Source: a virus
Direction: 5' to 3' (one strand)
Length of the DNA stretch: 44,759 nt
Virus record (IMG/VR): IMGVR_UViG_3300032030_000143
Positions 29,758-44,759 of this stretch are shown one piece after another. Made by a program: the position numbers and the translations under genes. The notes under the pieces were generated by a model. The model saw only the letters and a program-made list of their open reading frames with translations. It was not told the origin of the DNA and did no database searches. The first letter of the stretch is position 1; every line of letters starts with the position of its first letter.

Positions 29758-30240
29758 CTCTGGAAAAAATTACCAACTTTTTGACGTTTCGAGGCGCCGT
29801 TCTATATTTTCCATTTGAAAATCGGGAACCCCTACTACACCTTTTCCGGCCCAAAACTCGGTAAAATTTACCAACTTTTTGACGTTTCCTATCAACCATA
29901 TTAAAGTTCGGAAACTCGGTAAAATTTACCAACTTTTTGACGCCAAATAGTCATATTAAATTTTAACATTTTATTTAAAACTGTAAAATATGAGGTACAA
30001 CCCGTTCTTAAACTCGGTAATTTTTACCGACTTTCCGATCCTAAACTCGGTAAAATTTACCAACTTTTTGACGCCAACAAACGGTAAATTTTACCGAGTT
30101 TCCGTCCTTTTTTCTTTGTATTTATAGCCACCCGGGCAAAAACTCGGTAAAAATTACCATCTTTTTGACGCGAACTGGCGGTAAATTTTACCGACTTTCC
30201 GATCTCTTTCTCGGTAAAATTTACCGCCTTTTTGACGTTT
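29758..30240. repeat. iteron cluster: at least 8 direct and inverted copies of about 30 bp AAACTCGGTAAAATTTACCAACTTTTTGACG
   Basis: The core TCGGTAAAATTTACCGA is itself near-palindromic; spacing is irregular; no coding capacity. Confidence 0.6.
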
Positions 30241-30572
30241 CAAAACGACTTAATCTTACATAAATCTCCACTTTTTAATCTTACTAAATCTCCATCCGCC
30301 CATTCTACATCTTCACGAACGATCTCATAACTCCAAATTTCCGGAATATCAGGAGGATATTCAATAAATTCATAGCAATTCTGCCGCAGCGGCACTAAAA
30401 ATCTTTCTTTAATTAATATATCCCTAGCATTGCGCCAACTCTTATCACTGCCACCAGCCCATTGAATTAAAGCCTATGGACTAAATGCCATTTCAAAATC
30501 CTTTTCATTCTAACTTAAATACAACCATAATTTAATTCCATATTCATTTAAAGTTTTACAAGCATATTCCAT
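30240..30572 (-). CDS. hypothetical protein with in-frame TAG codons (minus strand); the frame stays open upstream to about 30660
   Basis: The minus-strand frame gives a protein-like product (..KLWLYLS*NEKDFEMAFSP*ALIQWAGGSDKSWRNARDIL..) broken only by TAG; ends with TGA. Confidence 0.4.
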
Positions 30573-30660
30573 AGCTTTATTATTTATCTTTGTATAATAA
30601 TGTTCTTTATCTTTTTCCAAATCATATTTTTTAACTATTAATAACTAATTCGCATAAGTC

Positions 30661-30855
30661 TTAGCCACGGGAATTCCCCCCCAGCACAGCACTTAAAGCT
30701 TTATCAAATTTATCATCCCATTTAAATGCCCAACATAAATACTTAGGATTAGTTGGATTCGGGAATGTATCTATTGGACGAAAGCCCAATTCTAAAAGTT
30801 GCATCATTACTTTTTTTGAGTAAATGATTTTTGTTAATTCGTTTATTTGTTCCAT
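30661..30855 (-). CDS. hypothetical protein (64 aa)
   Basis: ORF track; GGAGGACTAAATAA-ATG context on the minus strand. Confidence 0.55.
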   Translation of the reverse strand: MEQINELTKIIYSKKVMMQLLELGFRPIDTFPNPTNPKYLCWAFKWDDKFDKALSAVLGGNSRG

Positions 30856-30873
30856 TTATTTAGTCCTCCTATA

Positions 30874-31080
30874 TTACTACTATGCAGTAATATCTGAACT
30901 AAGGCTATCCCTTTTTGCAATTGCATGGCGCATCATACGCACAGCTTTACGAATGACCTATGAGACAGTCATATCATGACTTTCTGCGTATCTTACTAGC
31001 CAGCCGTAATCCGTTAAGGGCAACCTAATGGAAATCTTCTAACTATTTGGATTTTCCATAGATATTTTACTCACTTTCAT
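30874..31080 (-). CDS. ribbon-helix-helix (Arc/CopG-like) regulator with 2 internal TAG codons
   Basis: Minus-strand product MKVSKISMENPNS*KISIRLPLTDYGWLVRYAESHDMTVS*VIRKAVRMM.. matches the RHH pattern (beta-strand SIRLP, helix ..MTVSQVIR..); TAG falls where Gln is usual. Confidence 0.5.
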
Positions 31081-31084
31081 TGCG

Positions 31085-31140
31085 GTTTTAGGCAAGACAC
31101 TGTCCGACATCAAATTTGTAAGACAAAGACATACCATCGG
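31085..31140. promoter_or_regulatory. divergent control region with perfect palindrome GACATACC-ATCG-GTATGTC
   Basis: Lies between the minus-strand RHH gene and the plus-strand class II promoter. Confidence 0.45.
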
Positions 31141-31243
31141 TATGTCAAAAACTTACCTATATTTAATTGAAAATTTTAAAAAAATATTATATAATATATT
31201 TGTAAAAAAGATAAAAAATAAACTAAAGGAGTTCAATACAAAA

Positions 31244-41671: not shown

Positions 41672-41710
41672 TATTTAATCCTTTGAATTTTTGCTGTTAA
41701 AGGACAAACA

Positions 41711-43324
41711 ATGATAGAAAAACTTTCAGAACAAGATAAAGATTTAATTTATAATTATATTAGAACATTTGGTCCCATTAATGATAATTATGAACCAGAG
41801 CATGATTTTAGTGGATTTGATATTATATTACACGAATGGGATCGCCAAAAACAAACTTTATACAAACTTTTAGGAAATAATTTTATTGTGCGGCGTCCTT
41901 ATACTTATATGTATAATACAGATGCAATAGTAAAAAAAATGTCAATAGAGAAATATACTCCAGCTTATGAGAATTTTTCATAGTGGATAAAAAAAGAAGT
42001 CTTGGGGCCTATGTCAACTCAAGATTATGGTGTTTATACTATGATTAGGGATACTTTTGATTTATCAGTATTAGCAGATAATAAATACCCTTATGCAACG
42101 ACAACCTATTATTTGCCACCAGATAATGAAAAATTTAAAGTATCAAAAGGTATGCGCCCATTACGTATTTTATCTAAAATTGCACAAAAATATAAATGTG
42201 ATGAACAAATTTTTGAAAATTTTAGACTTTGGCATTCTCAAATGTTAAATAGTAAAATGGTTGATGGGGAACTTTGTTTATCAATCCATCCATTAGATTT
42301 TATGACAATGAGTGATAATAATAATAATTGGTCTAGTTGTATGAGTTGGATGGATCATGGAGATTATAGATGTGGCACTATAGAGTGTATGAATTCTCCA
42401 TATATTTTAGTAGCATATTTGCATAATCCAGAACATACTATGGAGCCTATTCAAGGTATGGAATGGAATAGTAAACATTGGCGTGAATTATTCGTTGTTT
42501 ATCCAGAAATGATGTCAGAGATTAAAGGATATTGTTTCCAAGATCTACATTTAACAAATACGGTCTTAATGTGGATTAAAGAATTGGCAGAAAATAATTT
42601 AGGATGGACTTATGATAATGATGAAATAAATGTTGCTAATACTATTCCTTGGAATGAAGATGATGATTTACTTATTAATATTTCCCCTGAGCAATATATG
42701 TATAATGATTTTGGGACTCTTGATACGCATCGTGCAAGAATTAATCGTAATAAAATAGGGAAATATCATTTAACTGAATGGCAAGATAAAGAAGCAACAA
42801 ATTGGCATTATATGGCAGAATTTTCTTATGGAGGTTTAGCCACATGTATGTGGTGTGGGCAACCAATAGAAGATAGAGAAAGAGATAATGCCGTAATGTG
42901 CATAAAATGCGATAATGGAACTTATTGCGCTTGCTGCGGAGATTATCTTCCTAAAGATTATTTTTATTATATTGATGATTTAGATGATCCTATTTGTGAA
43001 GAATGTTTTGAAACTGAATGTGTCGTTGATGATCTAACTGGTTATTCTCATCTTGCACAACATTGTGATTGCCTTCATTGGTTAATTGGGTATGATGATA
43101 ACAATAATCCTATTTATTATGATAATGTCATTTATGTATATGATCCTGATACTAACCCAGAATATTTTAAAGTATTTAATAATAAACCTCGTATAGACAA
43201 ACGTCTTTGGGATGTCAAATATTATATTACATTAGATGATGTGATTGATAAGGATAGATTCGCTGAAATATTTGATTTAAATTCTAGTATCCCTGATGTT
43301 ATCGCAGATTACACGGCTATTTGA
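41711..43324 (+). CDS. large Cys-cluster protein (about 537 aa) formed by TAG read-through at 41981-41983
   Basis: Track ORFs 41711-41983 and 42002-43324 share a frame and are separated only by TAG; a C-terminal CxxC cluster is present. Confidence 0.5.
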
Positions 43325-43508
43325 AAATTTAAAAAAAAAATTATATAATATAATTGTAAAAAAGATAAGAAATATCTTTAAAAAAGAAACAGATGAACGG
43401 CATACTTATTAAAAAAGGAAATCTAATTGCAAATTTAAAAAAAATATTATAAAATAAGTATGTAAAAAAGAAAAAAAATAATTTATTAATGAAAGGTGAA
43501 TAAAAATT

Positions 43509-43916
43509 ATGTCTGATTCTGTTGTTAAGGTTACTAAGCGTGAGCGGTATGAAGCTATTAAGACTCTTTGTGGTATGGTTGAGAATGCTGGAGATCTTGA
43601 TATTGATGGAATTGTTGCTTTTTGCGATAAGGAAATCGAAACTCTTGATGCTCGTGCCGAGAAGGCTAAGGAGCGTGCGGCCATCAAGCGCGCTGAGGGC
43701 GATGAGTTGATGGAAATTGTTTATAATGCTTTGACTGATGAATTTGAGTCTCGTGATACTATCACTGCTCGTATTAATGATGAAAATATTACCGCTGCAA
43801 AGGTGACTTATCGTTTGACTTCTCTTGTAAGAGAGGGCAGAGCTGTAAAAGATGAGGCTACTGTTACTGGCGCTGATGGTAAGAATCGGCGTGTTTCAGT
43901 ATATAAGCTAGCATAA
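43509..43916 (+). CDS. hypothetical protein (135 aa), distant relative of family B (C-terminal winged-helix-like segment)
   Basis: ORF track; two class II promoters at 43322-43355 and 43422-43465; AAAGGTGAAT RBS; terminator at 43920-43958. Confidence 0.65.
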   Translation: MSDSVVKVTKRERYEAIKTLCGMVENAGDLDIDGIVAFCDKEIETLDARAEKAKERAAIKRAEGDELMEIVYNALTDEFESRDTITARINDENITAAKVTYRLTSLVREGRAVKDEATVTGADGKNRRVSVYKLA

Positions 43917-43919
43917 GTT

Positions 43920-43958
43920 AAAAATAAAAACCATCTAATATTAGATGGTTTTTATTTT
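43920..43958 (+). terminator. rho-independent terminator
   Basis: AAAAACCATCTAATATTAGATGGTTTTTATTTTT. Confidence 0.7.
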
Positions 43959-44019
43959 TATATTGACATATTTAAAAAAAAATGGTAAAATAAAAAAAAG
44001 AAAGAGGTGAAAATAGATA

Positions 44020-44759
44020 TGCGTTTTTGTTTAAGTGGACGATAGACTAATGAATACTTAAAAAAAGCTGATGAACTTATGATAAATTATTCAGATCATA
44101 ATTTTATCTATGATGCCACTAAGATTAACCCAAATGCAGTTATTACTTTGATAATTGATTCAAATGATAATATTGATTGGGATATCTTATCTTAGTATAA
44201 AGTAATATGTAAAACTGATTTTAGAGTTGCTAGTAATAATAGTGCTATTTTATTAGACGCAAAGGAAAAAGGATATAAATTTTTCAATTTAATTCCAGCT
44301 AGATATGGATATCAATTAAATGCTTTAATAAATTTTGGAGTATGCGCCGTTCGTATAGGCGGTTAGTTAGCTCATGAGATGGATTTTTTAAGTAAAATTG
44401 ATATTGAAAAAAGAATGATTGTCAATTCAACAGATTCATATTTAAATTTTAATCCTTTAGTTGGTGCATGGATCCGTCCAGAAGATTTATCTTTATTAGA
44501 ATCTATTGATGTTTGTGAATTTCAATACATCAATCAAAAATAGGAATAGGCTTTATATAGAATTTATGCGGAACAGAAAGAATGGCCTGGACGATTGTCT
44601 GAATTAATCATTGGAATTAAAGATAATGATATAATGAATAGAATGCTACCTCCAGAATTTACCAAACAAAGACTAAATTGTAAATAGTCTTGTATGAATG
44701 GAGGAAGCTGTAAATATTGTGAGCATGTGTGTGATGCAGCAAAAATAGATTTCATAAAA
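44020..44759 (+). CDS. partial gene (runs off the window) with 6 in-frame TAG codons; possible peptidase-U32-like fold (very tentative)
   Basis: Promoter TTGACA..TAAAAT at 43965-43995; AAGAGGTGAAAAT RBS; a single frame open across 246 codons apart from TAGs at 44044, 44185, 44365, 44539, 44545 and 44683. Confidence 0.5.

Follow-up and report, generated by a model that had tools for sequence, protein, structure and literature searches.

Reassignment of TAG to glutamine in a subset of genes of an uncultured jumbo phage, with a probable role in the timing of translation

A jumbo phage segment with two kinds of gene organization

The 44,759-nucleotide (nt) stretch of viral DNA held as IMG/VR record IMGVR_UViG_3300032030_000143, the whole of which is referred to here as the window, consists of two parts that meet at about 28–30 kb and differ in base composition, with a GC content of 0.36–0.48 over 1–30 kb vs 0.26–0.36 beyond 30 kb. 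Many genes of the AT-rich part contain in-frame amber (TAG) codons, and the subject of this report is the reading of these codons as glutamine (Gln), as in genetic code 15, together with its probable use in gating translation. By its relatives, the window is a portion of an uncultured jumbo phage genome of about 240–250 kb, because the closest long relatives measure 239.5 and 249.7 kb. The first of these, IMGVR_UViG_3300028805_000039, encodes a major vault protein (MVP) 97% identical to that of the window, with flanking genes that are 40–95% identical, and it is therefore taken to be a mosaic relative; the second, ENA contig k141_439716 of ERZ27274629, has 90–93% nucleotide identity across 22 kb. 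Loci in related contigs are denoted by L numbers, of which L002 is the locus of the mosaic relative, L100 and L103 also belong to IMGVR_UViG_3300028805_000039, L134 is in k141_439716, and L089 is a relative with 90–93% identity. Short, near-identical contigs were found in several JGI and ENA samples, among them JGI 3300028888, 3300028833 and 3300031992 and ENA ERZ27257202 and ERZ27257205. A megablast comparison of the 30–44.8 kb part with GenBank phages gave no match.

Between position 30240 and the end of the window there are 27 in-frame TAG codons distributed over ten of about 24 genes, and these ten frames contain no in-frame TAA or TGA, as a first-pass annotation of the sequence had stated. 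On the minus strand are three of them: a small gene (30240–30572) with TAG at 30510–30512 and 30474–30476; an RHH/DUF6290-like gene (30874–31080) in which TAG at 31039, 30958, 30880 and 30877 accounts for all four Gln codons, and whose Pfam DUF6290 match is weak (E 2e-4, under the curated cutoff); and a formate/nitrite-transporter-like (FNT-like) gene (32011–32619) with five TAGs at 32590, 32449, 32263, 32224 and 32200, corresponding to amino acids (aa) 10, 57, 119, 132 and 140, respectively. The number in the FNT-like gene depends on the start, being five if this is near 32619, as homologs indicate, and three from the ATG at 32400, so that the two to four TAGs previously ascribed to each minus-strand gene hold for the first two genes (two and four) but for this one only from the later start.

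The plus-strand genes are more varied in length. A Cys-rich gene (31667–32032) has a GGAG ribosome-binding site and a TAG at 31700 (aa 12) as its first Gln codon, and is followed by a gene at 32683–33033 with TAG at 32728 and 32854. Next is the 815-aa MVP-like gene (33107–35554), matching Pfam MVP_shoulder and Vault_3, which has a strong AAGGAG ribosome-binding site and in which TAG at 33122 (aa 6) is the first of 24 Gln codons. Further to the right, the gene at 40137–40679 may start at TTG 40137 or ATG 40164, TAG 40224 being internal both ways; a 310-aa gene (40739–41671) contains TAG at 40820, 40886, 41003 and 41171; and a 537-aa gene (41711–43324), with a match to phrog_18912, is continuous only if TAG 41981 is read. 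Finally, a 263-aa gene has its 5′ 247 codons inside the window (44019–44759), with six TAGs at 44043, 44193, 44364, 44541, 44547 and 44685. All TAG positions given in the first-pass annotation are in frame in the genes named there; the last gene begins with ATG at 44019 and not at 44020. About 14 genes of the AT-rich part are TAG-free, giving a recoded share of about 42%, and since about 11 consecutive small plus-strand genes (35649–40140) contain no TAG, the recoding is patchy. The only open reading frames (ORFs) of at least 300 aa in the window are those of the PcfJ-like protein described below, the MVP-like protein and two proteins without an assigned function.

The left part of the window has a different organization. 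From 1 to 30 kb it is tiled by small plus-strand ORFs, mostly TAA-terminated, and the early-type region that they form (186–27319) contains about 60 near-consensus sigma-70 promoters and no credible in-frame TAG. Its genes include those for NT5C, a nucleoside 2-deoxyribosyltransferase, a PcfJ-like protein and two phrog_20187 paralogs, with nucleotide-metabolism and exonuclease-like assignments; the two paralogs, at 18772–19482 and 25286–25990, are related to a DNA polymerase exonuclease subunit. The promoter consensus in this part is 5′-TTGACA-N17-TGnTATAAT, with about one promoter per gene on the plus strand. Perfect (12/12) promoters number 23 on the plus strand and one on the minus strand between 10 and 30 kb (102 sites vs 54±7 in shuffled sequence), whereas at 30–44.8 kb there is no perfect one (87 sites vs 91.5±8.8 shuffled). 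The few intergenic promoters with 11/12 or 10/12 matches in the AT-rich part are of two kinds: 5′-TTGAAA-N17-TATAAT at 31167, 35601, 38398 and 43321, and a TAAAAT type, with 5′-TTGACA-N17-TG-TAAAAT at 40676 and 43963 and 5′-TTGACT-N17-TAAAAT at 32653 on the minus strand. The three TAAAAT-type promoters stand directly in front of the three most TAG-rich genes, namely the 310-aa gene at 40739 (four TAGs), the gene at 44019 (six) and the FNT-like gene (five). In the closest IMG/VR relative (L092:1–10000) the promoter-dense layout continues past the left end of the window for 10 kb or more in the upstream direction, so the early-type region would exceed 40 kb. The label 'early' for 1–30 kb is thus supported by its promoter-dense organization.

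The distribution of TAG follows the same division. In the curated gene set, TAG accounts for none of 143 Gln codons in 1–30.2 kb vs 27 of 129 beyond (Fisher p = 3.6e-10), so that, within the window, the proposed restriction of in-frame TAG to the AT-rich part holds. This partition coincides with the sharp change in promoter class, which supports the presence of two expression classes, as judged from sequence organization. The early count was made on plus-strand ORFs bounded by TAA and TGA only and scored by codon usage, and each TAG was checked against promoters and ribosome-binding sites; a greedy both-strand ORF picker was replaced, as in the early region it also counted shadow ORFs on the antisense strand that contain CTA/TAG. 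Five apparent early in-frame TAGs were set aside. Three are in 5′ leaders before the real ATG (220, 762/783 and 22456), one is in an ORF overlapping the tRNA-Leu(UAA) gene (6990–7076, plus strand), and the fifth is the TAG at 12394–12396 on the plus strand, which ends a 49-aa early gene. The ATG of the next gene follows 1 nt on, at 12398, and the TAG falls inside the ribosome-binding site of that gene (GAGGTGG); read-through would add nine codons before a TGA. This codon had been called a genuine stop, and its context fits, though the sequence alone cannot prove it.

Two further features of the left part were observed. First, there are four repeated cassettes (13128–13520, 20281–20660, 21264–21640 and 23884–24400), each with three or four consensus promoters 110–130 bp apart, and each promoter precedes a variable, GC-rich and ORF-free stretch of 70–90 nt that ends in an A-run. 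A conserved leader (GGAGCCTTGTCCTACTAAAAGGCTTTAGAATCTGGTAGGTAAA) closes three of the four cassettes (not that at 21264–21640), before paralogous genes. The folding z-scores of the cassettes are unremarkable; these may be arrays of small RNA genes. Second, contigs of three independent assemblies (JGI, ENA) stop 100–280 bp from the window's left end (1–300), which suggests a repeat or other genome feature that interrupts assembly there; a 43-mer from the window start has no exact occurrence in IMG/VR.

Reading of in-frame TAG codons as glutamine

Several observations indicate that the frames interrupted by TAG are genuine genes. First, plus-strand standard-code ORFs at 30–45 kb end in TAA or TGA throughout, in agreement with the earlier statement that genes of this part do not terminate with TAG; the sole exception is TAG 41981, which is internal because the 537-aa protein is continuous in relatives. 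Second, tblastn against L002 yields single alignments that cross TAG sites at 40–95% identity. A single segment spans aa 1–534 of the 537-aa product (52% identity) over TAG 41981, the alignment of the small gene at 30240–30572 (40% identity, aa 1–110) crosses both of its TAG sites, the ortholog of the gene at 32683–33033 is 79% identical from aa 1, and that of the gene at 40137–40679 is 86% identical with CAA at the TAG site. Likewise, Pfam Form_Nir_trans matches the FNT-like frame across all five TAGs (E 3e-16), and database searches give 177 homologs for the gene at 44019, most of the aligned ones spanning the full query. Third, the independent, code-aware gene calls on ENA contigs that match the window exactly are of 171, 310, 537 and 263 aa, the first of these being the call through TAG 40224. 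Fourth, TAG is present in L089 at 20 of 21 compared window TAG sites, the remaining one being CAG, and conservation of these sites at 90–93% nucleotide identity rules out sequencing errors and decaying pseudogenes.

An explanation of these frames by pseudogenes, by assembly or sequencing errors, or by short TAG-bounded ORFs as the true genes is scarcely credible. It can draw on the JGI standard-code calls, which give just 35–54 aa fragments for the same DNA, but the frames are broken by TAG alone, identical sequences occur in independent assemblies of several samples, and full-length homologs cross every site tested, with Gln enriched there. The alignments, which run on through the TAG positions, refute it. 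Frameshifts were likewise considered as an explanation and rejected. The gain in ORF length under TAG-, TGA- and TAA-sense codes, computed for the window and 80 related loci, was discarded as a recoding metric, because removing any stop lengthens ORFs alike.

The residue that occupies the TAG positions in homologs is, at several independent sites, Gln. The column of codon 6 of the MVP-like gene is occupied by CAG (55) or CAA (16), that is by Gln, in 71 of 78 orthologs, and where another MVP ortholog has a TAG the column is Gln in 56 of 79. In the gene at 44019, aligned with 115 homologs of at least 220 aa (about 260 aa; JGI and NCBI entries included), Gln is found at aa 9 in 87, at aa 177 in 111 and at aa 223 in 85, so that three of the six TAGs lie on columns that are 74–97% Gln (background frequency 3.8%); at aa 59 Gln is the commonest residue. 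In the FNT-like protein, aa 119 is a Gln column in most distant bacterial FNT proteins and is encoded by CAA in L002, and aa 57 and 132 are Gln in close homologs. Codon exchanges between the window and L089 are of TAG with CAG, with CAA and, once, with AAG (TAG in L089, AAG in the window). The alignments proposed in the first-pass annotation for the MVP-like and FNT-like products therefore gave the expected residue, at MVP aa 6 and FNT aa 119. This was not so for the RHH-like protein, whose TAG positions had been described as usually held by Gln; its sole ortholog has His and Ser there. Together with the TAG exchanges for CAG and CAA and a Gln-like tRNA(CUA) in the two closest long relatives (see below), these columns bear out the reading of TAG as Gln, and we conclude on comparative grounds that this phage uses TAG as a Gln codon in part of its genes.

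One of the FNT-like sites has an additional feature. At aa 132 (TAG at 32224–32226), where close phage homologs have Gln, distant bacterial FNTs have a conserved His within the motif LIHFAV, which we take to be probably the central His of FNT channels. From this substitution, the phage FNT-like protein may work differently from bacterial FNTs.

Amber suppressor tRNAs in related phages

The window encodes four tRNAs, and apart from tRNA-Leu(UAA) these are Lys-UUU (21089), Glu-UUC (21993) and Asn-GUU (24824), none of them with a CUA anticodon. Among 80 MVP-centred related loci, there are 21 tRNA(CUA) genes in 19. In IMGVR_UViG_3300028805_000039 the MVP gene is followed, after about 17 kb, by the start of an array of about 37 tRNAs, and in both closest long relatives such an array has a tRNA(CUA) at its end, about 43 kb downstream from MVP. 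These two genes are in the same syntenic place, at L103:10390–10459 (about 201.77 kb on the contig), shortly after tRNA-Gln(CUG), and at L134:10390–10459, after tRNA-Gln(UUG) and tRNA-Gln(CUG). Because of the collinearity with these relatives, the genome to which the window belongs is inferred to carry a tRNA(CUA) about 30 kb past the right end of the window. The search for such a tRNA suggested by the first-pass annotation was therefore negative within the window and positive in the two closest long relatives.

The two suppressors have the features expected of glutamine tRNAs. Many paired stem changes distinguish them, yet both keep the loop CUCUAAC, and both share with the phage tRNA-Gln(CUG) an unpaired 1:72 position with U72, G73 as the discriminator base, a CCA end encoded in the gene and the acceptor strands CUCC.../...GGGAG. 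Both also have D-arm features in common with the tRNA-Gln genes, the D-arm of one being near-identical to that of tRNA-Gln(UUG). Bacterial glutaminyl-tRNA synthetase has a weak 1:72 pair and G73 among its identity elements. By these shared features, the tRNA(CUA) of the relatives derives from the phage's own tRNA-Gln. When the diverse tRNA(CUA) genes of the clade are compared with their nearest isotypes they have about 70% identity to several of them, and a clear likeness to tRNA-Gln is confined to the syntenic suppressors of the closest relatives. A degenerate pattern made from the suppressors of two relatives matched just five further contigs in IMG/VR.

Two other ways in which the amber codons could be read are addressed by these tRNAs. 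The first is that TAG is sense for another residue (pyrrolysine, Ser, Leu, Tyr, Trp or Lys). ARAGORN names the CUA tRNAs 'Pyl', which follows purely from the anticodon, two distant relatives have a class II-length tRNA(CUA) near tRNA-Ser (L047 and L061), and homologs have K or P at some of the TAG positions. Against this, Gln is 20-fold above background in the informative columns, the syntenic suppressors, with a length of about 75 nt, resemble tRNA-Gln, and Pfam scans of the window ORFs found no pyl gene families; reassignment to another residue thus seems highly improbable for this phage. The class II-length genes themselves measure 91–92 nt (L047:1115–1206 and L061:6338–6428), that of L061 abutting tRNA-Ser(UGA) and that of L047 adjoining tRNA-Tyr, with tRNA-Ser about 300 nt upstream, and by this criterion some distant MVP-bearing relatives may decode TAG as a residue other than Gln.

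The second is read-through without a phage tRNA(CUA), by near-cognate tRNA-Gln(CUG/UUG) or a host suppressor. In its favor, the window is without a tRNA(CUA), both tRNA-Gln isoacceptors are encoded by relatives, and published surveys detect a suppressor in just 40–61% of recoded phages (bioRxiv 10.1101/2021.08.26.457843; PMC13037316). However, a canonical tRNA(CUA) is at the same place in both closest long relatives, and 27 ambers, with up to six per gene, would be expected from general knowledge of read-through efficiencies to leave negligible full-length product by near-cognate decoding. We regard this explanation as very unlikely, if a little less so than reassignment to another residue, and prefer decoding by a phage-encoded tRNA(CUA).

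A tRNA-like element at 24178–24250 (plus strand), behind the promoter at 24135, has a CUA triloop and was rejected as a candidate suppressor, as neither ARAGORN nor Rfam recognizes a tRNA there (121-nt search). It comprises an acceptor-like stem (GGGCGAG/CACGCCC), a T-arm (GGGGG-UUCGAUU-CCCCC) and a middle hairpin (GCCCCC-CUA-GGGGGC), has a minimum free energy of −34.9 kcal/mol (z −2.3), and is 96.5% conserved in L002.

Other features were observed in and around the tRNA arrays of relatives. In L134 a TAG-free gene with a 5′-TTGAAA-N17-TATAAT promoter is directly upstream of the suppressor, and the genes inside the tRNA array upstream of it have zero TAG; right after the suppressor (L134:10557–17943) there are eight TAGs in a 242-aa gene, three in a dUTPase gene, six in a RuvC gene and seven in a 162-aa gene. 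At L100:18449–18602 a tRNA, probably Gln-UUG, has its anticodon loop split by an insert of about 83–86 nt that itself folds in a tRNA-like manner, with a 7-bp acceptor stem, D-arm, T-arm and CCA end; the L101 ortholog is insert-free. The tRNA array of the closest relative also contains a full-length ROOL RNA (L098:17607–18230; Rfam RF03087, 292 bits). Finally, ARAGORN reports tRNA-like genes with four-base anticodons (tgtt, taaa, tgga, ggat) at L103:11746–11817 and L134:12256–12327, and also in L053, L058 and L079, and one such gene is 1.3–1.8 kb downstream of the amber suppressor.

Amber placement and a proposed translational gate

The amber codons are not evenly placed along the genes. The first Gln codon, whether TAG, CAA or CAG, is TAG in nine of the ten recoded genes (within-gene permutation p = 7e-5), with first TAGs at aa 6, 9, 10, 12, 14, 16, 21, 21 and 28; the rule fails only for the 537-aa gene, which has its TAG at aa 91. 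Misassignment of starts is the obvious artefact for such a bias. In six of the recoded genes the N-terminus is conserved through the TAG, and for those alone the chance probability is about 5e-5; five of these starts have clear ribosome-binding sites. A similar, weaker tendency was found in independent gene families of related phages, each represented by one gene and none of them shared with the window: 24 of 56 genes have TAG as their first validated Gln codon vs 15.5 expected (p = 0.007), and TAG makes up 0.34 of the Gln codons in the first fifth of genes but 0.17 in the last fifth. To our knowledge, no such positional rule has been reported for recoded phages. It is not mentioned in bioRxiv 10.1101/2021.08.26.457843, and a full-text literature search for it gave no match.

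Taken jointly, these data point with high probability to a jumbo phage that uses code 15, with TAG as Gln, for a subset of its genes, and in which translation of that subset is gated by a tRNA(CUA). After infection, the host would transcribe genes of the 1–30 kb part from their consensus promoters with its own RNA polymerase and translate them in the standard code; in this promoter-dense part TAG is kept out of reading frames and may serve as an occasional stop. The TAG-containing genes would yield short N-terminal peptides until the phage tRNA(CUA) outcompetes release factor 1. The amber codons would then constitute a translational gate, with which a TAG as the first Gln codon in nine of ten recoded genes is consistent. 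A narrower proposal, which we advance tentatively and would place somewhat short of an even chance, is that the amber codons are deliberately placed as a 5′ gate and are not merely tolerated; besides the first-Gln-codon bias, the position of the three most TAG-rich genes right behind TAAAAT-type promoters suggests this. In that case transcription by the host polymerase could occur at any time, and translation would abort as a harmless short peptide until tRNA-Gln(CUA) is abundant.

Several results weigh against parts of this interpretation. First, at two of the six TAG sites in the gene at 44019 the homologs do not favor Gln uniformly, aa 116 being mostly P and aa 175 K or Q, and L002 orthologs with 40–50% identity have mixed residues at some TAG sites. 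Second, searches of the window for a tRNA(CUA), with ARAGORN, with Rfam at gathering and lax thresholds, by blastn with the genes of 17 relatives and with an anticodon-stem-loop pattern, found none, and no ORF in the window is a candidate release factor or Gln-tRNA synthetase. Third, Pfam and PHROGs searches recognize no structural or lytic function among the recoded genes, which are MVP-like, FNT-like, RHH-like or unassigned, and in L134 the recoded genes include those for dUTPase and RuvC, with three and six TAGs, so that a restriction to late genes is not evident. The change in promoter class backs the division into early and other genes made in the first-pass annotation, but not specifically its label of 'late' for the recoded part. 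Fourth, under strict start criteria the bias in related phages is 18 of 49 vs 13.8 expected (p = 0.11), which is not significant.

The alternative that must be considered most seriously is that TAG encodes Gln but is no timing device, the ambers having accumulated by drift in an AT-rich genome with a suppressor, or serving to keep the host, competitors or defence systems from reading the genes; the early region would then avoid TAG merely because it has to be translated before any phage tRNA exists. The patchiness of the recoding (ten of about 24 genes, with 11 in a row TAG-free), the mixed functions of recoded genes, including dUTPase and RuvC in a relative, and the gain and loss of TAG sites between relatives all agree with this, and a low-GC route to recoding has been described (bioRxiv 10.1101/2021.08.26.457843). 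Nonetheless, the first-Gln-codon bias and the falling TAG share along genes are unexpected under drift, and the match between the TAG partition and the change in promoter class argues for a role related to expression. On balance we think the absence of any timing function unlikely, though of all the alternatives it is the one with the strongest claim, and we favor the tRNA(CUA)-based gate.

The closest precedent is the use of code 15 by gut phages of the Lak, crAss-like, Jade, Sapphire, Agate, Garnet, Amethyst and Topaz clades (Borges et al., bioRxiv 10.1101/2021.08.26.457843), in which 26–71% of genes are recoded; the timing hypothesis, partial recoding and phage suppressor tRNAs are already established there for Lak, crAss-like and other gut clades. 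The window shares with these phages the alignment of TAG with Gln, partial recoding (about 42% of the genes of the AT-rich part), low GC content, a tRNA(CUA), here in relatives, and a proposed gate, and as in the large genomes of Jade, Sapphire, Agate and Lak the recoded modules are scattered among standard-code ones. It differs in that the recoded genes are not recognisably structural or lytic, and in that no release factor 2 or tRNA synthetase is seen. The earlier comparison with lifecycle-phased recoding in gut phages stands at the level of sequence, with the suppressor found in relatives only, and is less firm as regards late genes. In crAss-like phages the TAG to Gln change was confirmed by metaproteomics according to Peters et al. 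(Nat Commun 2022, PMC9523058); the reassignment there is the same and was inferred likewise, but is confirmed by peptides, whereas here it is known from sequence. The crAss-like phages, which measure about 100 kb and infect Bacteroidota, form an unrelated lineage. The TTGACA/TATAAT promoters with a TG extension and the strong Shine-Dalgarno sites of the present phage suggest another type of host, possibly Bacillota.

Among recoded rumen and gut jumbo phages a suppressor tRNA(CUA) is present in about 61% of genomes (Anim Microbiome 2026, PMC13037316). These phages resemble the present one in jumbo size, in their many tRNAs, in recoding that is found in some regions while absent from most, and in tRNAs with an intron-encoded tRNA, to which the split tRNA of L100:18449–18602 may be compared; that study is at the level of whole-genome coding density and makes no mention of this lineage, of a promoter partition or of a positional bias (PMC13037316). 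The gene identified here as MVP-like also has viral precedents, two phage MVPs having been described (bioRxiv 10.1101/2023.11.10.566534) with the same MVP shoulder and Vault_3 domains, a likeness that bears on gene identity only. In contrast to those two, orthologs of the 815-aa protein are on at least 80 IMG/VR contigs of about 30–400 kb each, and the huge phages LR756500, LR756501 and LR756503 (462–735 kb) carry MVP-like genes about 40% identical to that of the window. This level of identity gives no clade, and no terminase gene was found within the window or the fetched loci. A cellular parallel to the suppressor is supE of Escherichia coli, a tRNA-Gln with a CUA anticodon that competes with release factor 1 for UAG and places Gln there. 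The tRNA(CUA) of the phage relatives likewise looks derived from tRNA-Gln, having G73 and an unpaired 1:72 as in the phage tRNA-Gln genes, but supE is a host mutation of low efficiency and is not programmed into the life cycle of a virus.

The TAG to Gln recoding described here is therefore a known kind of phage code switch, in a new lineage. Standard-code annotation breaks about 40% of the genes in the AT-rich modules of this lineage, and code 15 restores full-length proteins, recovering a widespread viral MVP homolog and a formate/nitrite-transporter-like channel. The contrast within one genome between a promoter-dense, TAG-free region and an amber-containing one is unusually clean, which makes it a good case for testing the timing of translation. 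Should the 5′ placement of amber codons be borne out by more extensive data, the sequences themselves would give direct evidence for gating over drift.

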